Of a DNA stretch of 64,000 bases, positions 3,055 to 50,100 are shown in pieces. Source of the DNA: an uncultured bacterium. GTDB taxonomy: Bacteria > Eisenbacteria > RBG-16-71-46. Under the pieces are notes generated by a model. The model was not told the origin of the DNA, searched no databases, and was given only the letters and a program-made list of their open reading frames with translations. Positions within the stretch are counted from its first letter, which is position 1. Each line of letters starts with the position of its first letter. Where the stretch lies: positions 13,938 to 77,937 of the forward strand of contig CAYSWZ010000073.1 in NCBI GenBank assembly GCA_964434945.1. Reading direction: 5' to 3'. A program made the position numbers and the translations under genes.

Positions 3055-5477
3055 ACCTGCGGCGCGCCGCCGCGTGCGCGGCGCTGGTCGTGTTCCTGTG
3101 CAACGGCCGGGCGTACGCCTCCGCGCTCACGCCGGCCCAGCCGCTGGTCCTCTACGGCGACGAGAGCGTCGCGAGCACGGACGATGCACGCGCGTACCTG
3201 GTGAATCCCGCGGCCATCGGCCAGCGCTACCCGGGCGAACTGCTCCTGGCGTGGGCGCGGCGCGACGAGAAGCACGAGTGGAACACCGGCGTGGGCACGT
3301 GGCGGCGGCTGGCGTTCGGGTTCACGCGGCAGCGCGACACGTCCCAGACCTACGGCATCGGCTTTTCCGCCGGCAGCCCGCGCGTCCGCTTCGGCTGGTC
3401 CGGCTACCTGCTGGTTGCGGGCCAGCCGCAGCGCGAACGCGACCTCGACGATCGCGTCGGCATGCTCGTCCGGCCGGCGCCGTGGGGCAGCGCCGGATTC
3501 ACCGTCGCGCACCTGTTCGAGCCGGAGTTCCGCGGGCGGCGGTTGTCGCGCGAGTACACGATCGGGGCGGGGCTGCGGCCCCTCGCCTGGTGGCGCGAGC
3601 AGGCGGGCGATGCCGGCACGCGCTTCACGCTGAGCGCCGACGTGACGATGGTGGACGACGGTGACTGGGGGCAGTCGCGCGTGCGCGTCACCGGCACGCT
3701 CGAGGTGCTCCGCGGCCTCGAGTTGCGGGCGACCGCCGGGGACCACCGTTCGCTCGCATTCGGGGTGACGGTGCGCGGCGTGCGTGCCAGCGCCAGCGCC
3801 GCACAGGCACGAGTCGACGGGGACCGTGCCTACGAGAGCTACGCGATTTCGTCGCACGCGGGCGAGGACCGCGCGCTCGTGGTCCCGAGCTCGAGCCGGC
3901 GCGTCGCGCTCGTGCGCATAGGCGGTGCGCTGGCGGACGAGGCGCTGGGGGGCGGGCTCCTGGGCGGAGGAGGCGCGCGGCCGTCCGCCCCGCTCCAGCA
4001 GCAGCTCGAGCGTGCGCTCCGCGACCCGCTCACGCGCGGCGTCTTCCTGGAGCTCGACGGCGTCACCGGCATGGCACAGCTCGAGGAGTTGCGGCCGCGC
4101 CTCGTCCAGTTGAAGAACGCGGGCAAGCCGGTCGTGGCCTGGATGCAGTACGGCGGCGGTCGTGGCGACCTCTACCTGGCGAGCGCCGCGTCGAAGGCGT
4201 ACGTGTCGCCGGCGGCCGAGTTCCGGGGGCTGGGACTGCGCGCCGAGCGCCGCTATTACAAGCACGCGCTCGCGAATCTCGGCATCAAGGTGGACCGCGT
4301 CAGCGTGGGCGATTTCAAGAGCGCGTACCGGAATCTGAGCGTGGATTCCACCCCGCCGGCCGACACCGCGGTCATCCAGCGCCTGCTCACGCAGCGCCAG
4401 GAGCTGTTCGTGCACGCGGTGGCGAGCGGCCGCAGCGTCGCGCCGGAACGGCTGCTGCCGGTGCTCGACGGACGCGACTACGAGGGCCGGGCGCTGGCGC
4501 GAGCCGGGCTCATCGACTCCGTGGGCTGGCGCGAGGACGCGCTCGCGGAGCTGGGACGGCTCACCGCGCTCGGGCGGAAGCCGCGCACGGTGGACCTGCT
4601 CCGCGCGCCGGAGGCGCGCGTGCGCTGGAACGAGCCGGCGCGGATCGCGGTGGTGTACGCGGGCGGCGCGATCGTGGACGGCAAGAGCGGCAACGACCCG
4701 CTGGACGGCGGCGTGATGGGCGACCAGACGATCACCGCCCAGCTCGAGCGCGCGTTCCACACCCGGGGTGTGAAGGCGATCGTGCTGCGCGTGGAGAGCC
4801 CGGGCGGCTCCGCGGGCGCCTCCTACCTCATGGACCACGCGGTCGAACGACTGCGGCGCGAGACGGGCAAGCCGGTGGTGGTGTCGATGGGCTCGGTCGC
4901 CGCGAGTGGCGGCTACTTCATGGCGGTGCACGCGAACAGGATCTACGCCGACCGGAACACGGTGACGGGCTCGATCGGGGTGTTGTTCCTGAAGCCGTCG
5001 TTCGAGGGCATGTACGCCAAGCTGGGTGTGCACGAGGACGACTTCGACCGCGGCGACTACATGCGCGCGCTGTCCCCCGCCCGGGATTGGCGGCCGCGCG
5101 ACCAGGCGGCGGCGGACAGCGCCATCAAGCGCCTCTACCGCACGTTCGTGGACCGCGTGAGCAGCGGGCGCAATCTCGAGCACATCGAGGTCCAGAGCCG
5201 CGCGCAGGGCATTCCCTGGCTCGGCGACGAGGCGGCCGACTACCGGTTGATCGACGGGATCGGTGGGCTCGACGCGGCGATCTCCGAAGCCCGCCGACTG
5301 GGCGGCATCCCGGCAAACGAGAAGATCTCGCTCCTCGAGTTCCATCACCCGCGCGGGTCACTGTTCGAACGCGTGGTGGGCTCGTGGCTCCAGGGCTACG
5401 CGGCGGACCAGCTCCACGTTCACGACGTGACGCTCGCGCAGGCGAGGGCCGAAGACTGGGTCGACGAGCTGGAGTGA
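3051..5477 (+). CDS. sppA: signal peptide peptidase SppA, 67K type, with an extra N-terminal domain
   Basis: GTG at 3051 overlaps the nth stop (GTGA). Signal-like VNLRRAAACAALVVFLCNGRAYA. Two S49 repeats: GKPVVAWMQYGGGRGDLYLASAA, and IVLRVESPGGSAGAS...VVVSMGSVAASGGYFMA with the catalytic Ser context. The upstream part of track ORF 2538..5477 is a shadow of nth. Confidence 0.85.
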   Translation: MNLRRAAACAALVVFLCNGRAYASALTPAQPLVLYGDESVASTDDARAYLVNPAAIGQRYPGELLLAWARRDEKHEWNTGVGTWRRLAFGFTRQRDTSQTYGIGFSAGSPRVRFGWSGYLLVAGQPQRERDLDDRVGMLVRPAPWGSAGFTVAHLFEPEFRGRRLSREYTIGAGLRPLAWWREQAGDAGTRFTLSADVTMVDDGDWGQSRVRVTGTLEVLRGLELRATAGDHRSLAFGVTVRGVRASASAAQARVDGDRAYESYAISSHAGEDRALVVPSSSRRVALVRIGGALADEALGGGLLGGGGARPSAPLQQQLERALRDPLTRGVFLELDGVTGMAQLEELRPRLVQLKNAGKPVVAWMQYGGGRGDLYLASAASKAYVSPAAEFRGLGLRAERRYYKHALANLGIKVDRVSVGDFKSAYRNLSVDSTPPADTAVIQRLLTQRQELFVHAVASGRSVAPERLLPVLDGRDYEGRALARAGLIDSVGWREDALAELGRLTALGRKPRTVDLLRAPEARVRWNEPARIAVVYAGGAIVDGKSGNDPLDGGVMGDQTITAQLERAFHTRGVKAIVLRVESPGGSAGASYLMDHAVERLRRETGKPVVVSMGSVAASGGYFMAVHANRIYADRNTVTGSIGVLFLKPSFEGMYAKLGVHEDDFDRGDYMRALSPARDWRPRDQAAADSAIKRLYRTFVDRVSSGRNLEHIEVQSRAQGIPWLGDEAADYRLIDGIGGLDAAISEARRLGGIPANEKISLLEFHHPRGSLFERVVGSWLQGYAADQLHVHDVTLAQARAEDWVDELE

Positions 5478-5520: not shown

Positions 5521-5680
5521 CGCGCCGGCGGGGTGCGGGGCATGCTGAATACGGGCAACGCTCGGTCCGGCCATCCATGGCCGGCCCTCCCTGACGCGCG
5601 TTTAACGGCCTCCGCCATTCCATAGCTCCGGCCTACGCGCGACTGCCCGCATTCAGCACGCCCCGCACCCCACCGGCGCG
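5521..5680 (+). repeat. composite palindromic intergenic element, copy A (36-nt inverted arms plus 88-nt conserved core)
   Basis: Arms 5521-5556 and 5645-5680 pair at 33/36 positions. Core 5557-5644 (AACGCTCGGTCCGG...ACGCGCGACT) recurs at 37283-37368 and, reverse-complemented, at 48587-48674. Confidence 0.85.
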
Positions 5681-5712: not shown

Positions 5713-6450
5713 TCAGTGCGCGAGTAGCTCGTTGCGGAGGCGGGTGGACCAGGGGCTTGCGGGGTCGATGGCGAGGTAGCGCTGGGCGAGGGCGAGGGCT
5801 TCGGGGCGGCGGGCGACCTCGGCGAGGAGTTGGGCGCGGTTGTAGAGCGCGGGCAGGTATTCGGGGTCCGTGGCGTCCACGGCGGCGAACTGGGCGATGG
5901 CCCGCAGCATGAGCTCGCGACGCTGCCAGGTGTCGGTCGTGCGCTCGGCATCGAGCGCGAGCGCCACGCCCCAGCCGAGGCGGCCCTCCCCGTAGTGCGG
6001 GGCGCGCTCGCAGGCCTCGCGATAGTGGCTCGCGGCGCTGGCGTAATCGTGGCGGACGAGCGCCAGCGCGCCGAGCGCAGCACGCACGCGCGGCTCACGC
6101 GGGTGGCGGCGCGTCCAGTGGCGAAGCGCCAGCTCGGCGGCCTGGGCGCGCGCGAGCTCGGCATGATCGCTGGTGCGCCCCGCGGGCTCGCCCCCCAGCG
6201 CCGCGGCGCGGAATCGGAGGCCGGCGGTGACCACGCCGAGCGAAGCATCGGGGAGCCCGATCGAGGCGAGCAGCGCGGGATCGTCGGGAAGCCCCGCCGG
6301 ATGCGCGGGCCGGAACCACAGCGAGACGCCGGCGAGCGACAGCAGGAGCGCCAGGATCCCGAGGAACACCATGGCCGGGAGCGCGGGCCAGCGCAGGCGT
6401 CGTTCGAACTCGACCACGTGCGGCGACGGGCTGGGGGACACGGGGAGCAT
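5713..6450 (-). CDS. membrane-anchored TPR-like repeat protein
   Basis: 245-aa ORF with one N-terminal TM helix (PAMVFLGILALLLSLAGVSLWF), followed by helical repeats rich in A/L/R/Y (ASHYREACERAPHYGEGRLGWGVALA, YNRAQLLAEVARRPEALALAQRYLAIDP). Confidence 0.6.
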   Translation of the reverse strand: MLPVSPSPSPHVVEFERRLRWPALPAMVFLGILALLLSLAGVSLWFRPAHPAGLPDDPALLASIGLPDASLGVVTAGLRFRAAALGGEPAGRTSDHAELARAQAAELALRHWTRRHPREPRVRAALGALALVRHDYASAASHYREACERAPHYGEGRLGWGVALALDAERTTDTWQRRELMLRAIAQFAAVDATDPEYLPALYNRAQLLAEVARRPEALALAQRYLAIDPASPWSTRLRNELLAH

Positions 6451-7250: not shown

Positions 7251-8498
7251 ATGGCGCTCGCCCGCTTCCTGCAGATCTCCGACCTGCACCTGGGCCGCCC
7301 GTTCGCATGGCTGCCCCCGGAGCGGCGTGACCTGCGCCGGCGCGACCAGCACTCCGCGCTCGAGCAGATCGTCAAGCATGCGATCGAGCGCGACGTGCAC
7401 GCCATCCTGGTGCCTGGCGACCTGTTCGACGGCGTGCCGGTGGACACCGGTTCGCTCACGTTCGCCGTGCGCGCGTTCTCCGTTCCGGGTTGCCCGCCGG
7501 TGTTCATCGCGCCCGGCAACCACGACCCCGCGTCCACCGACAACGCGGCGTGGAACACGCGGCTGCAGCAGGCGCGCGGCACGCACTGGCCGTCGCACGT
7601 GCACGTGTTCGACTCCCCGCGCTGGAGCGCGGTCCCGCTCGGCACGCTACCGGGCGTGCGCATCTGGGGGCGCGCATTCCTGACCAGTTCCGGCACCATG
7701 GATCGACCGCTCGCGAAGGCTGCGCTCGAAGGGGTCATCGTGAGCGAGCCCGGGACGCTCGACGTGGCGGTGTTCCACGGATCCCGGGAGGGGCGCTGTC
7801 CCCCGGCCCAGAAGATCACCGCGCCGTTCAGCGACGCGGAAGTCACCGCGTCGCCGTTCGTCTATCACGCCGTCGGCCACTACCACCTGCGCTCCGAGAT
7901 CGAGCAGCGACCGGGGGGAGGCACCCCGTCGCACGGGGTTCGGCTGGCCTACGCGGGCTCGCCGGTCGCGCTCGACTACACCGAACCGGGCGACCACGGC
8001 GCACTCGAGGTGCTCGCGCGTTTCGACGACCACGAATGCGTGGTCGGCGTGGAGTCCATCAAGCTCGATCGCCGCCGCGTGATCTCGGCCCAGGCCGATG
8101 TCACCGGCTGCGCGAGCCCCGAGCAGGTCGACCGCCGCATCCTGCACGCCTACGCTGCGGCGGGCGTCTCGGAGCACGATTTCGTCAAGCTCACGGTCAT
8201 CGGCCGGCTCATGCCGGGTGTGCGCTGGCTGTCGCCGGGTCGCGACGTGTTCGCGCGTTCGTTCAACGTCCGCTGGGATCGGAGCGCAGTGCGTCCCGAT
8301 CACGACCTCGACGTCCTGCGGAAGAGCGAGGGACGCACCACGGAGGAGCGTTTCGCGCTCGAGATGCTGCGGCAGATCGACGCCGAGTCGGACTCCGAGC
8401 AGCGGGTCGCGCTGCAGCGCGCGCTCTACTACGGCCTCGACGCCTTCCGCGTGCGCGAGGTGGTGCCGCAGTGGGAAGAGGTGGAGGTCTCGGAATGA
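7251..8498 (+). CDS. SbcD/YhaO-like metallophosphoesterase (DNA repair exonuclease subunit)
   Basis: Calcineurin-like motifs ISDLHLG, VPGDLFD and IAPGNHD at the N-terminus. The stop overlaps the start of the following ATPase (ATGA at 8495-8498). Confidence 0.85.
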   Translation: MALARFLQISDLHLGRPFAWLPPERRDLRRRDQHSALEQIVKHAIERDVHAILVPGDLFDGVPVDTGSLTFAVRAFSVPGCPPVFIAPGNHDPASTDNAAWNTRLQQARGTHWPSHVHVFDSPRWSAVPLGTLPGVRIWGRAFLTSSGTMDRPLAKAALEGVIVSEPGTLDVAVFHGSREGRCPPAQKITAPFSDAEVTASPFVYHAVGHYHLRSEIEQRPGGGTPSHGVRLAYAGSPVALDYTEPGDHGALEVLARFDDHECVVGVESIKLDRRRVISAQADVTGCASPEQVDRRILHAYAAAGVSEHDFVKLTVIGRLMPGVRWLSPGRDVFARSFNVRWDRSAVRPDHDLDVLRKSEGRTTEERFALEMLRQIDAESDSEQRVALQRALYYGLDAFRVREVVPQWEEVEVSE

Positions 8499-11380
8499 AG
8501 CTGCTGCACCTCAGGGTGGACGGCTTCGGGGCGCTGCAGGGCGAGTGGACGTTCGCGCCCGAGCGCGTCAACGTGATCCTCGACGACAACGAGCGCGGCA
8601 AGTCGTCGCTGTTCGCCGCGGTCGCGGCGGCCCTGTACGGGCTGGACGGGGACCGCCGCTCGCACCGCGTCCTCACGCCGCTCGAACGCTGGCGGCCGTG
8701 GAACGGCGGGCCGTTCCGGGTCGCGCTCGATGTGGAGTGCGTGGACGGCGTCTACACGATCTCGCGCGACTTCGACCGCGGCGTGATCGCCGTGTTCGAT
8801 CGCAGCGGCGGCGAGGTGACCGAGCAGTTCCTCGAGGGGCGCGACGAATACCCGGTGGGGAAGAAGCTGCTCGGGCTGGACCGCGAGGAGTTCGAGAAGG
8901 TCGCGCTCCTCATGCAGGGCGAGCTCGACGAGGTGGTGCCGAGCGACGAGAAGGCGCGCCGCGCCTCGACCCTGAAGAGCCGTCTCGAGAACGCCGCCGA
9001 CACGCACATCGGCGATACGAACGCGTCCGAGGCGCTGCGCGTGCTCGAGGAATCGCTGCGCAAGTTCAACGCCCAGGAGCTGGAGTTCACCGGCACCATC
9101 GACAACGCCATCGACCGGCTGGCCGCCAAGCGCGAGCTGATCGAGGTCGACATCCGCGAGCTGGACGCCACGCTGATCATCGCGCAGGCGCCGTTGAACG
9201 ACCTGCACCGGCTGGCGAAGGAGGAGCGCACGCTCCAGGACTCGCTGCTCCAGCTCGAGAACGAGCGCCGGGCGGGGCTGGCGGTGGACGTGCGCCGCCA
9301 GCTCGAGGACCACGAGAAGGCGCTCGCGGAGGTGTCCCGGCTCGAGGCCGAGGCCGGCGGCCTGGCCGCTTCGGCGAACCTGCCGCCGAACGCCGAGGGC
9401 GAGTTGCGCGAAACCATCGCGCGTCACGAGGAGGCGATCCGCGGCATCGAAGGGCTGGAGGCGCGTCGCCGCGACGAGCTGGCGCGCGAGCGCGAATCGA
9501 TCGCGCGTGAACGCGCCGAGCTGGCCGCCTACGATTCGTTCACGCCCGAGGACGCCGACCGCTGCGTTGCGCAGGCCTCGGAGCTGCGCCACCTGCTGAT
9601 GCAGGACGCGCTGCTGCGACACCAGGTCTTCGAGCTGCGCGACGTGCTCGCGGGCAAGGGGCACGAACCGGAGAAGATCCAGTTCCTGCAGCAGCGCTTC
9701 GGCACCCTGCCGCCGGAGAGCGTGCGCCTGCTGCGGCAGCAGGCCGAGTTGAACCTCCAGTTCCAGAACGAATCGGCCGCGCTCGAGCACGGCCGCGCCG
9801 CCGCCACCGAGACGCTGCGCGAAGTCGATGCCTCGCGCGTCGCCCGGCGCACGCCGGGCTGGGTGCTGGTGGGGCTCGGCGCCGCGGCCGTGCTGGCGAG
9901 CGGCGTGGTGGTTCTGCTCGCCGCCTCGCCGACGCTGAGCCTCGGGCTCCTCGCCGCGGGCGTCGTGGTCGCGGGCACGGGCGGGGTGCTGCTGGTGACC
10001 GGCGCACGTTCGCGGCGCGAGGACCGCGAGGAGGCCATGGCGAGGCTCGCGGACTCGCAGACCCGGATCAACGCGCTCCACCGCCGCCGGGCGGAGAACG
10101 AAGCCGGGCTCAGTGACCTGGCGCGCATGATGGGCTACCGGGACAGCGTGGAGCTGCTGCGGCAATTCGGCGAGTACGCGCGATTGCTGGAGGACTCGGG
10201 GCCGCTGTTGCGCGTGCAGGAGCAGCTCGCGGCCGCAGAGGAGCGACGCGTGACGATGGTGAAGATGCTCGAGCCGATGCTCAAGGTCGCGCGCGGCGGC
10301 ACGATCACGCCCGAGCTGCTCGACAAGGTCGCGTACGAGGCGCGGCGGTCGCTGAACGCGCGCCAGCGGCTCGCCGACCTCGAGCGCGGGTTCGGCTGGG
10401 TCGAGGAGGAGAAGCGCGCGCTCGAGGCCGCCGCGAATTCGATGAAGGAGCGCGCGCTCCGCCTGCTGCAGGCCGCCGGCATCGCCTACGAGCCGGAGCG
10501 CGGCTGGGCGTTCCACGTGAGCGAGTTGAAGCGTCGCATGGAGGGCCGGGTGCGCTACGGCATGGTGGTCGAGGAGCTCATTCCCGCGGCGCGGCGCCGG
10601 CTCCACCCCGACCACGAGGTGGCGCAGCGGCGCCGCCAGCTCGAGATGCTCATGGCCGGCGGCGACCTGCCCGCGAACGCGCGCTCGTCGACCGAGATCG
10701 AGATGGAGGTGAAGCAGACGCGCAGCAAGCTGGAGGAGACCCAGCGCCGCCGCGCGGACGTGCGCGTCGAGGTGGAGGAGGTGTGGCGCCGGCACGCGCA
10801 GCGCCGGCCCGAGCTGGGCCAGCAGCAGGAACGCCTCGGACGCGCCATCGAGCGCGCGAGGAAGTTCAAGCAGTCGGTGGAGATCGCCCGCGACACCATC
10901 CAGCGCGTGGCCATGGATACGCATCGCAAGTGGGCGGACTTCCTGAACGACCGCGTGGCCGGGATCCTCGGCTCGTTCGGCTCGTCCGTGGAGGGCCTGC
11001 GCTTCGGTGAGGACCTCGACTTCTCCGTCCAGTTGGACGGCGGCCCGCTCGTCTCCCGCGGCAAGGCGCACGCCCAGCTCTCGGCCGGGGCGCGCGACCA
11101 GCTGTACCTCGCCGTGCGGCTCGCGATCAGCGAGTTCCTCTCGCGCGGGACGGAGCCGTTGCCGCTGCTGCTCGACGACGTGTTCGCCACGAGCGACGAC
11201 CAACGCCTGCGCGCCGGCATGCGGGCACTGATCGAGAGCTTCGGCGCGGGCCACCAGTTGCTGATGACGACCTGCCACCGGAGCCGCATGCTCGAACTGC
11301 AACGACTCGACCCCGAGCTCTACCGGGACCGCGTCCACTGGGTGGACCTGGGCATCGGCATGGGGGTGGACGGGCGGTAG
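8495..11380 (+). CDS. Rad50/SbcC/YhaN-like AAA ATPase with long coiled coils and a central transmembrane hairpin
   Basis: Walker A NERGKSSL, signature LSAGARDQLYLAVRLA, Walker B LPLLLDDVF. About 800 aa of E/R/L/A-rich coiled coil are interrupted by WVLVGLGAAAVLASGVVVLLAASPTLSLGLLAAGVVVAGTGGVLLVTGA (about 9859-10005). Confidence 0.85.
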   Translation: MKLLHLRVDGFGALQGEWTFAPERVNVILDDNERGKSSLFAAVAAALYGLDGDRRSHRVLTPLERWRPWNGGPFRVALDVECVDGVYTISRDFDRGVIAVFDRSGGEVTEQFLEGRDEYPVGKKLLGLDREEFEKVALLMQGELDEVVPSDEKARRASTLKSRLENAADTHIGDTNASEALRVLEESLRKFNAQELEFTGTIDNAIDRLAAKRELIEVDIRELDATLIIAQAPLNDLHRLAKEERTLQDSLLQLENERRAGLAVDVRRQLEDHEKALAEVSRLEAEAGGLAASANLPPNAEGELRETIARHEEAIRGIEGLEARRRDELARERESIARERAELAAYDSFTPEDADRCVAQASELRHLLMQDALLRHQVFELRDVLAGKGHEPEKIQFLQQRFGTLPPESVRLLRQQAELNLQFQNESAALEHGRAAATETLREVDASRVARRTPGWVLVGLGAAAVLASGVVVLLAASPTLSLGLLAAGVVVAGTGGVLLVTGARSRREDREEAMARLADSQTRINALHRRRAENEAGLSDLARMMGYRDSVELLRQFGEYARLLEDSGPLLRVQEQLAAAEERRVTMVKMLEPMLKVARGGTITPELLDKVAYEARRSLNARQRLADLERGFGWVEEEKRALEAAANSMKERALRLLQAAGIAYEPERGWAFHVSELKRRMEGRVRYGMVVEELIPAARRRLHPDHEVAQRRRQLEMLMAGGDLPANARSSTEIEMEVKQTRSKLEETQRRRADVRVEVEEVWRRHAQRRPELGQQQERLGRAIERARKFKQSVEIARDTIQRVAMDTHRKWADFLNDRVAGILGSFGSSVEGLRFGEDLDFSVQLDGGPLVSRGKAHAQLSAGARDQLYLAVRLAISEFLSRGTEPLPLLLDDVFATSDDQRLRAGMRALIESFGAGHQLLMTTCHRSRMLELQRLDPELYRDRVHWVDLGIGMGVDGR

Positions 11381-30068: not shown

Positions 30069-30111
30069 CCGGCGTGGGAGCGGGCGCGGGCCGCGCGCCC
30101 GCTCCCACCGC

Positions 30112-34947: not shown

Positions 34948-37197
34948 ATGTCCCAGTCCGGCGCCCGCCGCGCGGCCCGCGCCGCCGCGGCCCTCGCCCT
35001 GGTGTCCGCTGCGATCTGGCCCGCGGCATGCTCCAAGTCGCCGCCATTCGACCCGGGACCGAATCAGCGCCCGACGATCGAGGTCACGCAGGCGCCGGTG
35101 AACGCGACGCAGCCGTTCTTCTACGCGTACGAGCTGCGCTGGGCCGGCTACGACGTGGACGGCCGGATCGACCACTTCCGCTATGCCATCGATCCGCCGA
35201 CCCAGACGGTCGCCGAGACGGTGTGGGTGAACACGACGGAGAACCGGAAGTCGTTCCTGTTCCATTCCGACAGCCTCTCCACGTCCGCCGACCAGACCGC
35301 GGAAGGCTTCCACACCATCGTGCTCGAGGCGGTCGACGACCGCGGCGCACCCTCGGCGCCGGTCTCGCGCTCGTTCACCTCGTTCACGATCGCCCCCACG
35401 GTGCAGATCGTGCAGCCGGTGCTGAACCACCTGTTCTCGCCGACGTTCGGGCCGTCGTTTCACATGACGTGGAAGGGCAACGATCCCGACGGGCGCACCT
35501 CGAACCAGCCCGTCCAGTACAAGTTCAAGATGTTCAGCGACGCCGGCAGCGACTTCGACTTCCTGCGGGTGCTGACGGACCCGGACTCGGTGCGCCGCCG
35601 GTACGCGCCGCACTTCAGCGAGTGGGACTCGGTCGGCGGCGACACCACCTCCTTTGATTTTCGCGACCTCATCCCCGGGCATCACTACGTGGTGGTGGTC
35701 GTCGCCATCGACGAGGTGGGAGCGTATTCGCCAGTCATGAACTTCGACGTGAACATGCTGTACTTCAACGTCAGCTACGCCGGGCTGCTCGGGCCCAAGC
35801 TGACGATCTACAACGACAGCTTCTACTACACCGCGTCCACCGGGGGCGGCTTCCCGCTCGACCCGGCCGCCTACATCCATGCCGAGGCGCCCGCGGGGTT
35901 CCCGATCCACTTCAATTGGTCGGCGACCACGGAGAACGGCTCGTTCGTGACCGGATTCCGCTGGATGGTCGACGGCAACGTCGGGGACGAGACACCGCGT
36001 ACGGACGAGGCGACCGATCTCGTTCACTGGAGCCAGTATTCGCCCCTGTCCCAGTCCGTGAGCCTGCCCGCGATCACTCCGTCCGGTGCGAGCGAGACGC
36101 ACTTCTTCTACCTCGAGGCCCAGGACAACAACCAGCAGATCAGCATCGTGGTCGTGCAGTACGTCGTGGTCCGGGCGCTGTTCGACCGGGAGCTTCTCAT
36201 CGTCGACGACACCCGCCTGCTCCCGGACCACAAGGTGGGAACCTGCGTCGACCGGCCGCGGGGCGTGTGGCCCACCGCGGCGGAGCTCGACACGTTCTTC
36301 TTCGCCCGCGGTGGCAAACCGTGGAAGTGCTATCCGACCGGCACGCTGTCTCCCGTCGGCATCTTCTCGGGCTACGCCTACGACACGCTCGGCACACGCT
36401 TCCTGCCGCAGGGCACGCTGACCCTGCAGCAGCTGGCGCACTACCGGCACCTGATCTGGTACACGGACAACAAGGCGTCGCTCAACATCAACGAACCGAA
36501 CGTCACGCTCGACCCGATGAGCGAGCTGCGCTGGCTGTCGAGCCCGGGCCGCAGCAACCCGATCGGGACCTGGGTCACGCAGGGGGGCCAGGTGTGGATG
36601 TTCGGCGGCGGCATCGCCAGCTCTCTGCAGCGGAACTGGGAAAAGTCCGGCACCGCGGCCGACGTGTACTCGAACGCGGACGGCGAGCTGGTGCCGGGTC
36701 GCTTCATGTACGACGTCTTCGGCTGGCGCAGCGAGATCACGGCCCGGTCGTTCGCCCAGGCCACGAAGCCGGACCACCCGATCGGCCGCGGCAGCGATTC
36801 CCCCGATTACTCGACGCTGCCCGACTACCTGTTCGAGAAGTCGGTGGACACGGACGACATCAACGTCTACGGCCCGAACCGCATCGGGACGAGCGACTTC
36901 TACCAGTCATCACAGGTGGGCGAGGGCCTCACCAAGCCGAACGATGTGCTCGAGGACCAGGATCCGGACCCTTACGTGGTGCACATGGAAGCGGTGCTCG
37001 ACACGATCTACGAATCGGTCGGGGGCCAACTGGGTTCGACTCGCCCGGTCATGACGCTCATGCACAGCGCGAGCGGGAAGCCGCAGGTCTTCACCGGTTT
37101 CCAGCTCTGGTACTGGCAACGCGGCGAGCAGATCCCGATCGTCGACTGGGTGCTCCAGACCCTGTGGGGCATCCCGCGGAGCAACGTTCCGCGCTAG
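34948..37197 (+). CDS. large lipoprotein of unknown function
   Basis: 749 aa. Signal plus lipobox ALALVSAAIWPAAC. Normal composition throughout with repeated beta-sandwich-like modules (YELRWAGYDVDGRIDHFRYAIDPP, FHMTWKGNDPDGRTSNQPVQYKFKMF, FNWSATTENGSFVTGFRWMVDG). No motif I can assign. Confidence 0.75.
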   Translation: MSQSGARRAARAAAALALVSAAIWPAACSKSPPFDPGPNQRPTIEVTQAPVNATQPFFYAYELRWAGYDVDGRIDHFRYAIDPPTQTVAETVWVNTTENRKSFLFHSDSLSTSADQTAEGFHTIVLEAVDDRGAPSAPVSRSFTSFTIAPTVQIVQPVLNHLFSPTFGPSFHMTWKGNDPDGRTSNQPVQYKFKMFSDAGSDFDFLRVLTDPDSVRRRYAPHFSEWDSVGGDTTSFDFRDLIPGHHYVVVVVAIDEVGAYSPVMNFDVNMLYFNVSYAGLLGPKLTIYNDSFYYTASTGGGFPLDPAAYIHAEAPAGFPIHFNWSATTENGSFVTGFRWMVDGNVGDETPRTDEATDLVHWSQYSPLSQSVSLPAITPSGASETHFFYLEAQDNNQQISIVVVQYVVVRALFDRELLIVDDTRLLPDHKVGTCVDRPRGVWPTAAELDTFFFARGGKPWKCYPTGTLSPVGIFSGYAYDTLGTRFLPQGTLTLQQLAHYRHLIWYTDNKASLNINEPNVTLDPMSELRWLSSPGRSNPIGTWVTQGGQVWMFGGGIASSLQRNWEKSGTAADVYSNADGELVPGRFMYDVFGWRSEITARSFAQATKPDHPIGRGSDSPDYSTLPDYLFEKSVDTDDINVYGPNRIGTSDFYQSSQVGEGLTKPNDVLEDQDPDPYVVHMEAVLDTIYESVGGQLGSTRPVMTLMHSASGKPQVFTGFQLWYWQRGEQIPIVDWVLQTLWGIPRSNVPR

Positions 37198-37251
37198 GTG
37201 ACGCCCGGTTGCCCATTGCGAGTCGTCTTGCGACATCTCGTTGATAGGCGC

Positions 37252-37399
37252 GGCGGGGGTGCGGGGGGTCTCGCTCGAGGCGAACGCTCGGTCCGGACCT
37301 CCTGTCCGGACCTTCGCTGACGCTCGCGACGGCCTCCGCCATTCCATGGCTGCGGCCTGCTCGCGACTCGCCTCGAGCGAGACCCCCCGCACCCCCGCC
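37252..37399 (+). repeat. composite palindromic intergenic element, copy C (31-nt perfect inverted arms plus 86-nt core)
   Basis: Arms 37252-37282 (GGCGGGGGTGCGGGGGGTCTCGCTCGAGGCG) and 37369-37399 are perfect reverse complements. Core 37283-37368 is homologous to 5557-5644. Confidence 0.85.
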
Positions 37400-37476
37400 T
37401 CACACTGTCGAAGCCCGGAGGCCGCAGCACCTGCGAGGCCCGGCCCACCCCCCCGGCGACGACTCACCACGATTGC

Positions 37477-38880
37477 CTACGTCACGGGCGGAGGTTTGCG
37501 GTGGTGGTCGGTTCGGGACTGGTAGAGGTCTCCGAGGTCGAGGAGCGTCGCTTCCTCGAATGGCGAGCCCACGATCTGGAAGCTCGCGGGCATTCCCGCC
37601 TTGCCGAAACCCGCGGGCAGTGCGAGCCCCGGGAGCCCGCAGGCCGCCGCCAGGCCGCCCACCGGGTCGCCGTACGGGAGCGCCACGTTCAGGTCCTGAT
37701 CGACCGGCGGCGCCACGCTCATGAAGTTCGGGGTGACGATGACGTCGTAACGGTCGAGGAAGTCGCGCATCGTGCGCTGCACGGATTCGCGGATGCGCAT
37801 GGCCTTGATCGTGTCCGCGCCCGTGATCGGCTCGGCCAGCTCGCGCTGGCGCGGCGCCATGTCGTCCACCAGCTGCTTCACGCGCCCATCGTTCAGGAAC
37901 GGCTCGAATGCCGCCAGCGCCTCGACGGAGATGAGCAGCCCCGACACCTCGCTCGCCGGCACCTTCGGCAGCTCCGCGGTCTCCATCTGCAGCCCGGCGG
38001 ATCGCAGCTCCGCCACGGCAGCCTCGAACGCGGCACGCACCTCGGGCTCGCCGACCTTGGACCAGTCGAGGGGCACGAGCGCGGCCTTGAGCTTGTGCAC
38101 GGCGCGGCCACGACCCGCGTCGAGCCGAGTGCGTTCGGTGGCGCACGAGGGATCGCGCGGGTCCGCGCCGGCCATGGTGGTGAGCACGATCCGGCAATCG
38201 CCCACCGAGTGCGCGAGCGGGCCGACCTTGTCGAACGTGTACGCTCCCACCATGCCGCCGGCGCGCGACACCAGCCCGTAGGTGGGCCGGATGCCGGTCA
38301 GTCCGCAGAACGCGCTCGGGCACAGGATCGAGCCCCAGGTCTCGGTCCCGATCGCGAACGTCGCGAGGCCGGCGGCCACCGCGGCGCCGGATCCGGACGA
38401 CGAACCCCCGGTCCACCGTGACGGGTCCCACGGGTTGCGGCCGGGCCCGCTCGCGGAAGCGTTCGCGAAGCGGTAGCCGAGGCAGCCCGCGAACTCGACC
38501 ATGGCGGTCTTGCCGAGCAGCACGGCCCCGGCCTGCTCGAGGCGGTCGACGACGGTGGCGTTCTCGGCCGGGATGCGATCGCGCAGGAAGCGCGTGCCCC
38601 ACGCGGTCGGGATGCCCTTCGTGTCGAACAGGTCCTTCGCCGCATAGGGTACGCCGTGCAGCGGGCCGCGATACTTGTTGCCCTTCAGCTCGCTCTCGGC
38701 GCGCTGCGCCTGGTCGAGCGCGAGTTCGGGCGTGGGCTTCTCGAACGCGTTGAAGCGCCCGTTCAGGCGCTCGATGCGGTCGAGAAAGCCGCGCGTGAGT
38801 TCCACCGGCGACAGGCGGCGCGCGCGGATCTCCGGAGCGAGTTCCTCGATGGTCGCGAACCACACATCCTGCTTGAGCAT
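37477..38880 (-). CDS. amidase (amidase-signature family)
   Basis: AS signature GGSSSGSGAAVAAGLATFAIGTETWGSILCPSAFCGLTGIRPTYGLVSRAG. 467 aa. No signal peptide. Confidence 0.9.
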   Translation of the reverse strand: MLKQDVWFATIEELAPEIRARRLSPVELTRGFLDRIERLNGRFNAFEKPTPELALDQAQRAESELKGNKYRGPLHGVPYAAKDLFDTKGIPTAWGTRFLRDRIPAENATVVDRLEQAGAVLLGKTAMVEFAGCLGYRFANASASGPGRNPWDPSRWTGGSSSGSGAAVAAGLATFAIGTETWGSILCPSAFCGLTGIRPTYGLVSRAGGMVGAYTFDKVGPLAHSVGDCRIVLTTMAGADPRDPSCATERTRLDAGRGRAVHKLKAALVPLDWSKVGEPEVRAAFEAAVAELRSAGLQMETAELPKVPASEVSGLLISVEALAAFEPFLNDGRVKQLVDDMAPRQRELAEPITGADTIKAMRIRESVQRTMRDFLDRYDVIVTPNFMSVAPPVDQDLNVALPYGDPVGGLAAACGLPGLALPAGFGKAGMPASFQIVGSPFEEATLLDLGDLYQSRTDHHRKPPPVT

Positions 38881-43482: not shown

Positions 43483-44205
43483 ATGCGTGTGTCGAAGGCG
43501 ATGCGGGACCTGCCGGCGTGGACGCTCGTGTTCACGCTGGCCGCGGCGGGCAGCGCGTCCGCCCAATGCCAGAGCTGTGATCCGTTCCTCCACTGCGCCG
43601 TCTCGTCCCTGGGAGGGGCGATGGTGTGCGTCGAGGGCCCGGGCAGTTGCGCGCTGGTCCTTCCCTGCCCGCACGGCCGCGGTCGCATGCCGGACCTCAT
43701 GGGCGATGCGGACCTGACCACGTGGACGTTGTTCGACGCCGGGGCGGTCCCCCGCACCGGCCGCACCTCACTGCGGACCACCGCCGGGAGCCTCGCGCTC
43801 GGCGACGGCGCGCGCGTGAGCCTGTCCGCGCCGTTCATGGGCGGTGCGATCGCCGATGCGGCGCTGGTGCACGGGCGCGAATACGCGATCGTGCTGGCGG
43901 ACGCCGCCGGTGACGGCTTCGCGCTCAAGCGCGCGGTGGAGGGCTCGCGGGTGCGGATCGAGGTGCGTGAGGTGCGCGGGGATGTCCCGGGGGCGTTGCT
44001 CGCGAGCGAGGCGCTCGGCGAACACGACCAACTGCGTGTCCCGGTGCGCGTCGACGGACGCGAGCGGGTGATGGTGTTGCAGGCTGCGGGCGTGAATGGC
44101 GGGAGCGCAGCGATGGAGCTGGCGCGACTCCGCCAGGCGCTGCAGGCCGCCGGCCTTCGCCTGCCGCGGCGGCAGGAGCCGCTCCTGCGCCTCCGCGCGC
44201 TGTGA
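43483..44205 (+). CDS. secreted hypothetical protein with Cys-rich N-terminal segment
   Basis: AGGAGCAGG RBS. Signal MRVSKAMRDLPAWTLVFTLAAAGSASA. Mature N-terminus QCQSCDPFLHCAVSSLGGAMVCVEGPGSCALVLPCPHG has 7 Cys. The remainder is Ala/Arg/Gly-rich, so confidence is moderate. Confidence 0.55.
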   Translation: MRVSKAMRDLPAWTLVFTLAAAGSASAQCQSCDPFLHCAVSSLGGAMVCVEGPGSCALVLPCPHGRGRMPDLMGDADLTTWTLFDAGAVPRTGRTSLRTTAGSLALGDGARVSLSAPFMGGAIADAALVHGREYAIVLADAAGDGFALKRAVEGSRVRIEVREVRGDVPGALLASEALGEHDQLRVPVRVDGRERVMVLQAAGVNGGSAAMELARLRQALQAAGLRLPRRQEPLLRLRAL

Positions 44206-44235
44206 CCGGGCGCCGGCGGGACCGGGGCGCGCGCC

Positions 44236-45279
44236 TCAGTCCCGCCGGCGACGGGCTCCGACGCGCGCGGCGAACACGACCGCGAACAACACCAGCGCGA
44301 GGATCCCGACCACCACCGGCGTCCAGCGGTGCGGCAGGCGCTCGAGCAGGATGGCCGCGCCGCCGAACAAGGCCGAGAGCGTCCACAGCACGGCGAGGAC
44401 GGCGCGCGGCGACAGCCCCGTGTCGAGCAGGCGATGGTGGATGTGCCCGGCGTCCCCCTGGAACACGTGCCGGCCGCGCGCGAGCCGGCGCACGAACGCC
44501 AGCACGCCATCCGCGATCGGCAGTCCGAGCGCCACCAGCGGCAGCAGCAGCGTGAGTGCCGCGGTGCCCTTGCGGTTCTCGAGCAGCGACAGCGCGGACA
44601 ACGTGAGGCCGAGGAACTGGCTGCCGGTGTCGCCCATGAACACGCGGGCGGGCGGGCGGTTCCACCACAGGAACCCGCCGCACGCGCCGAGGAGCAGCGC
44701 GGCCACGAACATGACGTAGAAGTCGCCGTGTCCGCGCGCGGTCACCCACAGTGCGCCGCACGCGATCGCCACCAGGCCCGCGGCCAGTCCGTCCAGGCCA
44801 TCGATCAGGTTGATGGCGTTGGTGAGCATGATCACCCACAGCACAGTGAGCGGCACGCTCCACGCGCCGGTCACGATCGCCTGGCCGAACGGGTTCGTGA
44901 GCAGCGGTACGCCGTAACCGAACATCACGAGCACGAGCGCGGCACACGCCTGCACGGCGAGCTTGCCCCACGGTCCCGCACCGCGCACGTCGTCGAACAC
45001 CCCCAGCGCGAGGATCGGCAGCGCGGCGAACGTGAGACCGAGGAGCGGGCGCGCCTCCAGCTCGCGCGCCGGTCCGGGCAGCAGGCGTGCGACCCATGCC
45101 ACCGACAGCACCGCGGCGGCGATCGCGAGCCCGCCGAAGCGGGGCGTGGGATCACGGTGGATGCGCCGCGGTCCGGGGTGGTCCACCGCCCCCACCCGCA
45201 CCGCCAGCGACCGGGCGACCGGCGTCAGCGCCAGGGCCACCGCGCCGGAGGTGAGTGCGAGCGTCAGCGAATAGGGCAT
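44236..45279 (-). CDS. polyprenyl-phosphate N-acetylhexosamine-1-phosphate transferase (GT4 / WecA-MraY family)
   Basis: About 10-11 TM segments. Motifs GVFDDVRG, NAINLIDGLDGLAAG and VFMGDTGSQFLG. Start ATG overlaps the GT2 stop. Confidence 0.9.
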   Translation of the reverse strand: MPYSLTLALTSGAVALALTPVARSLAVRVGAVDHPGPRRIHRDPTPRFGGLAIAAAVLSVAWVARLLPGPARELEARPLLGLTFAALPILALGVFDDVRGAGPWGKLAVQACAALVLVMFGYGVPLLTNPFGQAIVTGAWSVPLTVLWVIMLTNAINLIDGLDGLAAGLVAIACGALWVTARGHGDFYVMFVAALLLGACGGFLWWNRPPARVFMGDTGSQFLGLTLSALSLLENRKGTAALTLLLPLVALGLPIADGVLAFVRRLARGRHVFQGDAGHIHHRLLDTGLSPRAVLAVLWTLSALFGGAAILLERLPHRWTPVVVGILALVLFAVVFAARVGARRRRD

Positions 45280-47298: not shown

Positions 47299-48513
47299 AT
47301 GGGAAGCCCCTCCGGGCGACCCGGGCCCGCCGACCTCGGGCCCGAGTTCGCCTCCGTCACGCTCGATCGGAGGCGGTTCCTGGTCGTGCTCGGTGGCGCC
47401 GCCGCCCTCCACGCCCTGGCGCCGTCGCTGGCCTGGGCACGCCATGCCAGCGGCACGTTGCCCTCGCTCCAGCCCTGGACGCTGCCCGCGGCGCTTCCCA
47501 CGAACCCGATCGAGGCCGGCCGCGCACTCGTCGGGGCCGCGGTGCTCGCGCCGAGTCACTGGAACGCGCAACCGTGGCGGTTCGAGGTGGACGCGGACGA
47601 ATTGCGCGTGCTCCTCGACCCGCAGCGCGTGCTGCCCCTGGACGATCCGGACCAGCGCTTCGCCCAGATGTCACTCGGTGCCGCGCTCGAGAACCTGCTC
47701 GTCGCCGCGCGCGCCTGGGGGCAGCAGCCGAGCGTCCGCTACCTGCCGTGGGGCACGGCGCCGCGCCCGGGAACGTCGCTCGTCGCCGCCGCGGTGTCGT
47801 GGACGCCCGCCGACCGCGCGCACGATCGGCTGCTGTTCTCGGCCCTCACCGAGCGACGCACGAATTCCCACCCCTACGACGGCCGTGCGATCACCATCCC
47901 GAGCCGTGGCCAGCTGCTGGCGCAGGTGGGCGAGGAGGTCCGCGTGCACTGGCTCGAGGACCGCGGCGACATCCGGGCGATCGGCGACCTGGCGCACGAT
48001 GCCGTGGAGCAGGTGATGTCCGACCGCCAGGCGCAGGCGGAGCGCGTGCTGTGGCTCCGCGATTCCGAAGGCGACGCGCGCTCGCACGGCGACGGCCTCA
48101 CCGCGGAACGGCTCGGGCTGGGCGGTCCGGCGCGCTGGTTCGCGGGACACTCGCTGAATCCCGAGAGTCACTTCTACGGCTGGGGCACTGGCAGCATGGC
48201 CAAGGACACGCGCGACCTGGTGCACAACTCGGGCGCGCTGGCGCTGCTCACGCTGCCGGCGCGCAGCGACGCGGGCTGGATCCTGGGCGGCCAGGCTTAC
48301 GAGCGCTTCGCGCTCCGCGCCTCGGCGCTGGGCATCGCCCAGCAACCGCTCGCGGCCCCGGTCGGCTCCGAACGTCACCGCCCGCTCCTCGCGCGGCGAT
48401 TCCACGCCGAGGGCGAGGAGCCGCTGCTGCTCGTCCGTCTCGGACACGCCAGGCAGCCGTCCCCCACCCCCCGCCGCGGCGTCGCCCTGGTGAGCACCTA
48501 CCGCACGTCGTAG
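47299..48513 (+). CDS. Acg-family FMN-binding nitroreductase-like protein with Tat signal
   Basis: DRRRFLVVLGGAAALHALAPSLAWA twin-arginine signal. LAPSHWNAQPWRF motif typical of tandem-nitroreductase Acg proteins. Start chosen at Met 47299. Confidence 0.75.
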   Translation: MGSPSGRPGPADLGPEFASVTLDRRRFLVVLGGAAALHALAPSLAWARHASGTLPSLQPWTLPAALPTNPIEAGRALVGAAVLAPSHWNAQPWRFEVDADELRVLLDPQRVLPLDDPDQRFAQMSLGAALENLLVAARAWGQQPSVRYLPWGTAPRPGTSLVAAAVSWTPADRAHDRLLFSALTERRTNSHPYDGRAITIPSRGQLLAQVGEEVRVHWLEDRGDIRAIGDLAHDAVEQVMSDRQAQAERVLWLRDSEGDARSHGDGLTAERLGLGGPARWFAGHSLNPESHFYGWGTGSMAKDTRDLVHNSGALALLTLPARSDAGWILGGQAYERFALRASALGIAQQPLAAPVGSERHRPLLARRFHAEGEEPLLLVRLGHARQPSPTPRRGVALVSTYRTS

Positions 48514-48555
48514 GGGGCGGCGGTGCGGACGTTGATCTCGCCACGTACTCCCCCA

Positions 48556-48705
48556 GGGTGGTCGCCGAGGGGTTCAAATCCTGGCGAGTCGCGCGCAGGC
48601 CGGAGGCAGGGACTGCCGGAGGCCGTCAAGCGCGCGTCAGGGAGGTCCGGGCAGGGATGCCCGGACCGAGCGTTCGCCATGATTTGAACCCCTCGGCGAC
48701 CACCC
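48556..48705 (-). repeat. composite palindromic intergenic element, copy B (31-nt inverted arms plus 88-nt core, inverted orientation)
   Basis: Perfect 25-bp inverted repeat 48556-48580 / 48681-48705, extending to 31 nt with one mismatch. Core 48587-48674, read on the minus strand, is 76/88 identical to 5557-5644. Confidence 0.85.
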
Positions 48706-48726: not shown

Positions 48727-50100
48727 TTACGACCCGCTCACCGTCATCTCTGCGATCAGCAGCGTCGGACATGCCACCGAGGAGCGCCATTCGAGATCGC
48801 TGCCGACAGCGGTGATGGAGTTCAGCATCTCGAGCGAGTTTCCCGCCACGGTCACGCCTTCGACCGGGAACGCCTTCTCGCCGTGCTCGATCCAGTAGCC
48901 CTGCGCCTGGAACGAGTAATCGCCGGTCACGCCGTTGAAGCCGTACGAGCCCTGGTCGTCGAAGTAGAAGCCGTTGTCCACCCGTTTCAGGATCGCCTCG
49001 GGCGAGTCCGCCCCCGGCTCCACGTACAGGTTGTGGAAGCCGATCCCGGGCGTGTTCGACCAGCCGCGCAGCCCGTTCGCCGTGGTCGCGCGCTGCGCGC
49101 GCCGGGCGTGGTAGCGGTCGTAGATGAACATCGCCAGCCGGCCGCGATCGAGCAGCACGTTGCGGCGCGTGCGCGCGCCCTCGCCGTCGTACGGCGAGCT
49201 GCCGATGCGCCGCGCGAGCGTGCCGTCGTCGACCAGCGTCACGAGCGGCGAGGCGATCGCCTCGCCCAGCTTGCCGGTGAGCCAGCTCGATTGCTTGAGC
49301 AGCGACTCGCCACTCCAGGCGTCCGCCATCTCCGACACCCAGCCGGCCGCGATGTCCGGGTGCATCACCACCGGCACGCGCGCGCTCGGCACGGTGCGCG
49401 CGCCGATCCTGTTCACCGCACGCTGCGCGGCGCGGCGCGCCATGGTCTCCGGCGACATGAGATCCGCCAGGTGACGCACGCTCATCCCTTCGGCGCCGGT
49501 CTGCTGGCGCCCGTCGCGGTCGTCGGCCAGCACCACCACCCACGCCGAAACACTGGTGCCCTCCCACGCGCGCGAAACGCCGAGCGTGTTCGCGACCGCG
49601 TAGGCGCCGCCCGCACTCGACACGCTGGCGCCGTCGCTGCGGGTCACGCGCGGGTCCGCCGCGAGCGCGAGGCGCTCGAGCTCGAGCGCCATCTCGATCT
49701 TCCGCTCCACCGGAAGCTCGAGCGCCGCGGGGTCGAAGAGCTGCTGGTCGCCGGCGAAGTCGCCGCCGGTCTCCTCCGGCCGCAGCGCACCGTTCGCCTC
49801 GTCGGGGGTGGCGAAGCGCGCCAGGGCCACGGCGCGGCGCGCGAGGTCGTCGAGCCCGGCGGGGGTGAGATCGGTGCCGGAGGCGAACCCGACCGCGCCT
49901 CCCACGATCGCGCGCACGCCCACGCCCATCGTGCCGCTCTGCTTGAGCGTTTCCACCGCGCCGCCGTGCACGCGGACGGTGAACGAGCGCGAGCTCTCCG
50001 CGCACGCATCGGCCACCTGTGCGCCGTGCGCGCGCGCGCGTTCCAGCACCTGCGCGCACAGCATTTCCACCTCCCCGGGGGGCGCGTGGCGTGCGTTCAT
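48727..50100 (-). CDS. pmbA: metalloprotease PmbA/TldE
   Basis: 457 aa from Met 50100, overlapping the tldD stop (ATGA). Typical PmbA_TldD stretches SGTMGVGVRAIVGGAVGFASG and FYFDDQGSYGFNGVTGDYSFQAQGYWIEHGE. The long track ORF 48727..51882 is a read-through artefact. Confidence 0.9.
   Translation of the reverse strand: MNARHAPPGEVEMLCAQVLERARAHGAQVADACAESSRSFTVRVHGGAVETLKQSGTMGVGVRAIVGGAVGFASGTDLTPAGLDDLARRAVALARFATPDEANGALRPEETGGDFAGDQQLFDPAALELPVERKIEMALELERLALAADPRVTRSDGASVSSAGGAYAVANTLGVSRAWEGTSVSAWVVVLADDRDGRQQTGAEGMSVRHLADLMSPETMARRAAQRAVNRIGARTVPSARVPVVMHPDIAAGWVSEMADAWSGESLLKQSSWLTGKLGEAIASPLVTLVDDGTLARRIGSSPYDGEGARTRRNVLLDRGRLAMFIYDRYHARRAQRATTANGLRGWSNTPGIGFHNLYVEPGADSPEAILKRVDNGFYFDDQGSYGFNGVTGDYSFQAQGYWIEHGEKAFPVEGVTVAGNSLEMLNSITAVGSDLEWRSSVACPTLLIAEMTVSGS

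Follow-up and report, generated by a model that had tools for sequence, protein, structure and literature searches.

The palindromic element at 37252–37399 of the window, the 64 000 nt stretch of DNA analysed here, belongs to an undescribed family of structured intergenic repeats of ~150–165 nt in Candidatus Eisenbacteria, an uncultured soil phylum in which we know of no described non-coding RNAs or repeat families. This element, copy C, and its relatives consist of a long stem, P1, that encloses a core with the predicted fold of a three-way junction. The conservation usual for bacterial palindromic repeats is inverted in them, as the ends vary and the structured centre is conserved. On balance, we favour the reading that the element is a structured repeat, comparable to REP and TRIT sequences, that acts as a single-stranded transcript and serves as a 3'-UTR module at convergent gene ends, and we infer a biochemical role for it.

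Three related palindromes in the window

A window-wide search ranked copy C and two relatives, copies A and B, as the three longest short-range inverted repeats in the window (Table 1), which has a GC content of 71%. The arms of copy C, delimited in an inverted-repeat search, are 32 nt long, 100% complementary and 84 nt apart; an earlier note on this DNA had described perfect arms of 31 bp, to which one further A-T pair can be added. The arms of copy A are 37 nt and 92% complementary and those of copy B 32 nt and 97% complementary, 86 nt apart in both cases. Copy B is inverted relative to A and C, and with B reverse-complemented the three cores align well and the arms differ. Core alignment and arm pairing both agree with the earlier proposal that C and A have a common core within arms that differ yet are self-complementary. 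The folding energy of copy C was −125.6 kcal/mol for the plus strand (z-score −13.1) and −131.6 kcal/mol for the minus strand (z-score −12.3), and 0/200 shuffles were equally stable. Given these values and its rank among the inverted repeats, copy C is not a chance feature.

The convergent neighbours reported for copy C were confirmed: an ORF on the plus strand ends at 37197 and a gene with a Pfam Amidase domain, on the minus strand, ends at 37477. Copy A lies between an S49 peptidase gene (plus strand, ending at 5477) and a TPR gene (minus strand, ending at 5713), and copy B between a nitroreductase-like gene (plus strand, ending at 48513) and a TldD/PmbA gene (minus strand, ending at 48727). 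The gene upstream of copy C (34948–37197, plus strand) encodes a 749 aa protein with no Pfam domain. It had been called an orphan lipoprotein, a label contradicted by 392 homologues at E ≤ 1e-20, some of them labelled Candidatus Eisenbacteria. Homologues of ~750 aa occur in Eisenbacteria-type assemblies, and the protein represents a conserved, lineage-specific family to which Pfam assigns no function.

Two other inverted repeats in the window are unrelated to the family. One is an imperfect 37 nt palindrome (76% complementary) at 44194–44267, at the end of a gene that ends at ~44205, and the other, at 9764–9916, has 40 nt arms that are 78% complementary and lies within a coding region. One arm of copy B (48566–48582) contains the T-arm-like sequence GGGGTTCAAATCC, probably by chance. 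A relationship to tRNA, prompted by GGTTCAAATCC in a copy B arm, was rejected when ARAGORN found no tRNA anywhere in the window.

Table 1. Copies of the element in the window and structural parts of copy C
Feature	Position	Strand	Details
Copy A (arms 5521–5557 and 5644–5680, core 5558–5643)	5521–5680	−	Three G.U pairs in minus-strand P1
Copy B (arms 48556–48587 and 48674–48705, core 48588–48673)	48556–48705	+ (sense strand)	
Copy C, P1 5' arm, GGCGGGGGUGCGGGGGGUCUCGCUCGAGGCGA (sense = minus strand)	37368–37399	−	Perfect 32 nt inverted repeat
Copy C, P1 3' arm, C-rich	37252–37283	−	Fully complementary to 37368–37399
Copy C, core, three-way junction: J1/2, P2, J2/3 (UCAGCGAA), P3, J3/1 (GAGCG)	37284–37367	−	Homology to the cores of A, B and >30 external copies
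Copy C, P2 arm (P2a, P2b, GNA/GNA internal loop, P2c, apical loop)	37321–37365	−	
Copy C, P2a, CGCGAGC/GCGAGCG	37359–37365 with 37321–37327	−	Tandem G.A
Copy C, P2b, GGCC/GGCC	37354–37357 with 37331–37334	−	
Copy C, P2c, GCCAU/AUGGC	37346–37350 with 37338–37342	−	Apical loop GGA, 37343–37345
Copy C, P3 hairpin, GGUCCGGAC-AGGAG-GUCCGGACC	37290–37312	−	Loop 37299–37303

Distribution of the family

Copies outside the window were sought by pattern scans of GTDB representative genomes and JGI metagenomes, which also returned chance matches. Among 13 genome matches, five were in the Candidatus Eisenbacteria MAG SMAG_U211, three in two MAGs labelled 'uncultured bacterium' and one in a MAG labelled 'bacterium'; the last four were chance matches. 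Two of these three further MAGs are syntenic with the window (loci L003, L004 and L006), as is L010, from the Eisenbacteria MAG, at 83–86% identity. This synteny, with the Eisenbacteria labels on homologues of the 749 aa protein, places the window in that phylum. The metagenome matches were mostly on contigs taken to come from soil or rhizosphere. Overall there are at least 36 copies (36 by nhmmer and ~38 by covariance model R1); the window contains exactly three of them, and control loci gave none.

Since AACGCTCGGTCCGG and CTGACG were fixed in both patterns used to scan the collections, the apparent lack of variation in these junction strands is partly a product of ascertainment. Only the copies in L083 and L087 were retrieved independently of a sequence pattern (L087 via a protein); they keep the architecture and the GGA loops, and their junction strands are more diverged.

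When the whole window was compared with Rfam 15, no match reached the gathering score, and at E ≤ 10 the region 37150–37500 returned only unrelated families (best E ~4). The element had no match in plasmids and phages (blastn) or in viral contigs (pattern scan), and a literature search turned up no paper on such repeats in Eisenbacteria. In metagenomes, many contigs stop within the element (L081 at 7459–7550, L082 at 1699–1771, and L021, L076, L064, L037 and L067), as expected of a repeat. The repeat systematically fragments assemblies of its host organisms, and a covariance model of it could be used for annotation in this phylum, whose metagenome assemblies break at the element.

The arms of P1 are paired and drifting

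A MAFFT alignment of 24 full copies, made without fitting to any structure, showed P1 to be 95.7% paired, with changes on both sides in 29 of its 31 pairs. None of 500 shuffles paired as well, and slid controls were 38–48% paired. Identical arms were never found at two different loci among >30 copies, which exhibit many forms rather than a few allelic types, in keeping with the variability claimed for the arms at the outset. Similar arm types nevertheless turn up more than once, as with the GGGGTCTCGCTCG.GGC type seen in copy C.

The arms had also been described as a composite in which a fixed outer box and a free 16 nt segment adjoin the core. The GGGGTGCGGGG box does lie 16 nt from the core in copies A and C, but it is a trait of one subfamily only, and the composite make-up is not general: the whole 30–35 bp stem covaries. 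The 16 nt inner segments of A and C, thought to be entirely different, are diverged homologues of one family template. All arms share a register and a loose template that consists of a G-rich 5' strand, ...UCGCGA-like... and GAGGSSA.

In 29 copies, the base immediately 5' of P1 on the sense strand is usually A, often within GA or CA (e.g. 37400–37401 in the window), and the base immediately 3' is usually G (23/29 copies; e.g. 37250–37251). The boundary of the element therefore reaches slightly past the helix, and the GA...GA flanks could be a 2 nt duplication.

The core is a three-way junction with conserved loops

Across 31 copies in a model-fitted alignment, which leans towards the model structure, the full structure was 93.7% paired and 42 of 58 pairs had changed on both sides. 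In the same alignment such changes were found at four of the five pairs of P2c, five of the nine of P3 and three of the seven of P2a. The last helix accounts for what had been read as a short direct repeat in the core. As noted earlier, both units change together, from ACGCGCG in copy A to GCTCGCGA in copy C; the units are better seen as the two strands of P2a, which read alike because the helix is nearly self-symmetric. Some copies have a Watson–Crick P2a, CGCGCGY/RCGCGCG, and others a P2a with tandem G.A, CGCGAGC/GCGAGCG, the two central positions alternating between Watson–Crick and G.A pairs, and A-U, U-A and G.U variants occur at the predicted partner positions.

The stem of P2c takes the forms GGCCA/UGGCC, GCCAU/AUGGC, GCCAG/CUGGC, GGGCA/UGCCC, GGCAG/CUGCC, GGACA/UGUCC and others, while its loop is GGA or GGGA in nearly all copies. 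The loops of P3 are mostly A(N)GGA(N), namely AUGGAU, AGGAG or AGGGAU, and a few copies have ACGAG, AGCAG or AUGAU, without GGA. An A(N)GGA motif is also presented by the J2/3 linker, CAGGGAGG. The GNA/GNA internal loop of P2 is probably structural, formed by tandem sheared G.A pairs.

Sites bound by CsrA and RsmE have the consensus CANGGANG, which the loops of P2c and P3 resemble, and these loops hold their sequence as the stems below them covary. The element could thus be chiefly a binding site or sponge for a protein of the CsrA/Rsm type, with P1 presenting or excising the A(N)GGA module, and RNAs of the CsrB, RsmY and RsmZ type similarly combine several hairpin loops and a linker with A(N)GGA motifs. 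However, each of those RNAs comes from a single-copy sRNA gene that has a promoter and terminator of its own, whereas the element is repeated many times per genome and sits within a 32 bp stem. The CsrB/Rsm models of Rfam gave no match, and no promoter consensus of its own was found at the element. Hundreds of genomic copies would be unusual for a sponge, the few P3 loops without GGA do not fit, and the GGA triplets of the internal loop behave as GNA/GNA and are likely to be structural. A tblastn search found no CsrA gene in 212 kb, a sample far too small to be informative. We consider a role that is chiefly that of a binding site or sponge for such a protein rather improbable.

A self-cleaving ribozyme, hammerhead or other, was considered on account of CUGACGC, on the opposite strand, and rejected, as no Rfam ribozyme model matched and the strand was wrong.

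One strand is under selection

The orientation of the core defines what we call the core-minus strand: in copies A and C this is the minus strand of the window, and in copy B it is the plus strand. On this strand, the non-Watson–Crick positions of P1 comprise 43 G.U and 7 A.C, together with 29 other mismatches. Most A.C cases are in visibly decayed copies. The excess of G.U has a binomial p of ~2e-7, a value to be read with the lower number of independent observations that orthologous copies entail. The members of inverted pairs lie on opposite DNA strands, and each has its G.U on its own core-minus strand. As both members show the excess, a mutation bias linked to the direction of replication or transcription was rejected as its source. 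The core-minus strand also folded more stably in 24/24 copies, with means of −118 and −108 kcal/mol for the two strands. In the two clean tandem-gene contexts, both verified with Pfam, the core-minus strand runs in the direction of the genes; one is in L012 (MacB/FtsX permease, element, Pyr_redox_2) and the other in L009 (Carb_kinase, element, ... M24 peptidase).

From the G.U bias and its presence in both members of inverted pairs, we conclude that a single strand is under selection; in copy C, this is the minus strand of the window, which is also the strand of the amidase mRNA. RNA would be the simplest candidate for this single strand, and a strand-specific ssDNA intermediate would also fit the tolerance of G.T. 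This clear strand-specific selection makes the family well suited to the question of whether repeats of this kind are selfish DNA, act as RNA regulators or do both.

The earlier note had suggested a strong dsRNA or cruciform former. The long stem is as described, but the count of 43 G.U against 7 A.C speaks against a purely double-stranded or cruciform role. The same evidence bears on a function in double-stranded DNA, either as a cruciform or as a site where a protein (a topoisomerase or a nucleoid protein, for instance) binds in regions of convergent transcription. A long perfect inverted repeat could extrude as a cruciform, and the element sits where supercoiling from convergent transcription builds up. 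A role of this kind is nevertheless strand-symmetric, and predicts neither a G.U excess that follows the orientation of the element nor the greater fold stability of one strand; covariation in the small core hairpins P2c and P3 would likewise be unexpected. We therefore regard it as very improbable.

Genomic position and turnover

With our own gene caller, 3 of the 8 convergent junctions in the window carry a copy and 0/19 tandem or divergent junctions do. External copies are also mostly between convergent 3' ends, 20–130 nt past stop codons; gene calls at these loci are crude (GC1>GC2 rule), and key ORFs were checked with Pfam.

Loci syntenic with site A (L006), site B (L003, L010, L021 and L054) and site C (L004, L067, L083 and L087) allowed orthologous copies to be compared. 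Their orientation is kept. The arms are 56–72% identical, the core 73–85% and the flanking genes 74–85%, and the arm differences include many G.C to C.G transversions that are mirrored on both arms. The near-perfect pairing of arms that evolve faster than the adjacent genes may reflect compensatory changes in very large populations; another possible cause is that quasi-palindromes have one arm corrected against the other at the level of DNA. Orthologous copies may bear different core subfamilies, and one inner-arm type recurs at non-orthologous loci with different cores; these swaps and recurrences suggest gene conversion or replacement among copies. Copies that share a genome do not resemble one another more than they resemble copies from other genomes.

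The number of copies at a site also differs. Site B holds one copy in the window and L021, two in L003, and two with a truncated inverted fragment in L010 and L054. At site C, a single copy is present in the window and in L004 and L087, and L067 and L083 have two each; the site is empty in L084, which has a 96 nt gap with an unrelated 14 bp hairpin, and in L085, which has an 11 nt gap. As the empty sites contain neither arms nor core, the two are gained and lost together. Arms always abut a core, and so are not remnants of a larger inverted duplication, and the original view that they belong with the core is upheld. The fragment in L010 (3391–3457) and L054 (~6065–6130), orthologous to ~48514–48555 of the window, consists of one arm and the first 16 nt of the core (...GGGGGGCCTCGCTCGCGGCGAACGCTCGGTCCGGAC). 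It is an inverted partial duplicate of the 3' end of the right-hand copy at that junction, which suggests a palindrome-mediated rearrangement.

Perfect 15–16 bp G-rich hairpins without a core were found at gene 3' ends at 30074–30108 of the window and 5912–5947 of L086, with the sequences GTGGGAGCGGGCGCG-GGCCG-... and GGCGGGAAGGGGCGCG-GCCG-..., respectively. They resemble the outer part of P1 and could be remnants left after loss of the inner part, or members of a simpler, related class of 3' end structure.

That resemblance, and the differences among the arms of different copies, would be expected if the 84–88 nt core alone were mobile and inserted into the loops of pre-existing long terminator palindromes, the arms then being target DNA. 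Against this, the empty junctions in L084 and L085 have no 30 bp palindrome, and ~300 kb offered no pool of long core-less palindromes (stems of at least 12 bp with loops of up to 12 nt reached at most 18 bp, and the two hairpins above were the only ones among them to resemble the outer arm). Moreover, one template and register is common to the arms of all copies, and in the truncated fragments arm and core are contiguous. Mobility of the core by itself is largely refuted, and we give it hardly any weight.

Inverted pairs are frequent, and in 9/9 the core-minus strand of the left copy is on the minus strand and that of the right copy on the plus strand. The first copy that any read-through transcript encounters is thus antisense, and the last is sense. 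Flipping of the core between inverted arms was considered and rejected, as alignments and the covariance model show that the loci in question carry pairs, and true orthologues keep their orientation.

A broader alternative is that the whole unit is a selfish, non-autonomous mobile element, like REPINs, PATEs or MITEs, that spreads through a strand-specific ssDNA hairpin with the help of a trans-acting transposase, any effect as RNA being incidental. It would account for the many copies and the assemblies that they break, for orthologous junctions that are empty, single or double, for the truncated and inverted partial duplicates in L010 and L054, for frequent inverted doublets like those of REP and for the recurrence of one arm type at non-orthologous loci, and strand-specific tolerance of G.T is what a top-strand ssDNA hairpin substrate would lead one to expect. 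However, the arms, which would be the recognized ends, are the least conserved part and the spacer is conserved, the reverse of REPINs and MITEs. Target-site duplication is absent: of 29 copies, 20 had no flanking direct repeat of at least 3 nt and the others had repeats of 3–4 nt only. Neither a transposase nor a RAYT was among the Pfam-annotated genes called in the five protein-retrieved loci with flanking sequence or among 14 ORFs beside other copies. The lack of closer relationship within genomes and the retention of sites across ~75–85% flank identity also count against it, and covariation and GGA-loop conservation in the core suggest a functional fold. We regard this alternative, which is partly compatible with a function as RNA, as possible but doubtful.

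Comparison with known repeats and RNAs

REP, BIME and REPIN sequences of Proteobacteria (E. coli, Pseudomonas) are likewise multi-copy extragenic palindromes that lie past stop codons, often between convergent genes, with frequent inverted doublets, predicted hairpins in mRNA or ssDNA and sites that vary among related genomes. The element shares with them its extragenic location, its repetition (three copies in 64 kb and at least 36 overall) and its nine inverted pairs. However, REPs are 20–40 nt units with a conserved stem, and REPINs, for which conserved REP arms, a spacer and a RAYT are diagnostic, vary more in the spacer, whereas the element has a drifting stem and a conserved, structured 84–88 nt 'spacer'. 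Its arms vary among loci, even orthologous copies being only 56–72% identical there, and it has no sequence similarity to REP. The closest functional analogy is E. coli REP325, a partly Rho-dependent 3'-UTR terminator that also stabilizes mRNA.

TRIT (Tuberculosis Rho-independent terminator) sequences resemble the element in being palindromic, largely bidirectional and multi-copy at gene termini in high-GC DNA, with no canonical U-tract, and have been proposed to need an additional RNA-binding factor. They are lineage-specific, simple hairpins with a conserved stem that overlaps the stop codon (centred ~8 nt before it) and are found only in Mycobacterium. The element is from another phylum, has a variable stem that lies 20–130 nt past the stop codon and contains a core with a three-way junction.

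CREE (Correia repeat enclosed elements) carries a TA duplication and an IHF site. Together with ERIC/IRU of enterobacteria, CREE of Neisseria resembles the element in size (~100–150 bp) and in having inverted-repeat ends around a core, and transcription of these repeats takes place together with that of genes. The terminal inverted repeats of CREE are conserved, whereas the element has no conserved termini, no duplication and a core with covarying RNA helices; conserved terminal inverted repeats of the MITE type are also absent from it, as 29/31 P1 positions vary on both sides. One report (PMC2649163) describes RNA hairpins of CREE as ligands of RNase III, which cleaves or protects them.

A scan for sigma-70-type promoter and terminator consensus sequences found none at the element. 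No U-tract follows P1 in either sense: the next 10 nt contain on average 1.2 T on the sense side and 2.5 T on the antisense side, and the longest run of T on the sense side is 3. Hairpins without a U-tract fail to terminate purified mycobacterial RNA polymerase, even with NusA and NusG, and plain intrinsic termination by P1 is consequently unlikely.

The integron attC site, a strand-selective hairpin in which structure is conserved and sequence varies, has the consensus GTTRRRY. It was considered as a relative of the element and rejected, since on inspection the junctions were not GTTRRRY and the genes are mostly convergent rather than in cassette arrays.

A possible role at convergent gene ends

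Under the reading we favour, a structured repeat that acts in the transcript at convergent gene ends, read-through transcripts of the junction would fold the 30–35 bp G/C-rich P1 co-transcriptionally. P1 would be constrained in its pairing only, not in its sequence, and would enclose the conserved three-way junction. It could act as a barrier to read-through and to 3'-exonucleases, or be a target of an RNase specific for double strands. A protein may bind to a platform made up of the conserved junction, the internal GNA/GNA loop and both A(N)GGA loops. The whole unit is gained, lost, duplicated and partly overwritten by other copies in the course of evolution, in the manner of REP and BIME. 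The layout of the nine inverted pairs counts against this reading, as it is the opposite of that expected for two unidirectional terminators. If the reading is true, the family illustrates how very GC-rich bacteria that have no U-tract terminators could tag or shield the 3' ends of mRNAs where genes converge, and its core would be a new protein-binding RNA fold.

A more specific and speculative version, which we think unlikely, is that the element is a processing cassette and represents an RNA class specific to Candidatus Eisenbacteria. A double-strand-specific RNase would cut the sequence-free 32 bp stem and so free a three-way-junction RNA of ~85 nt from scores of loci. A global regulator would be bound or titrated by this RNA, with its GGA loops and highly conserved junction strands, or the RNA would have a fold that is catalytic or binds a ligand. 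That the arms evolve rapidly yet always in mirror image would then be due to correction between arms at the level of quasi-palindromic DNA, filtered by selection on the RNA.

Two local arrangements were also recorded. In L008 (4532–5001), an inverted pair of elements lies between imuB-like (IMS family) and dnaE2-like (DNA polymerase III alpha) genes on the same strand, which places the pair in a putative mutagenesis cassette and not between convergent genes. In L087, an ~11 nt tandem repeat, GGAGTCATCGC, with at least three units at 10400–10455, adjoins the element at the orthologous site C.
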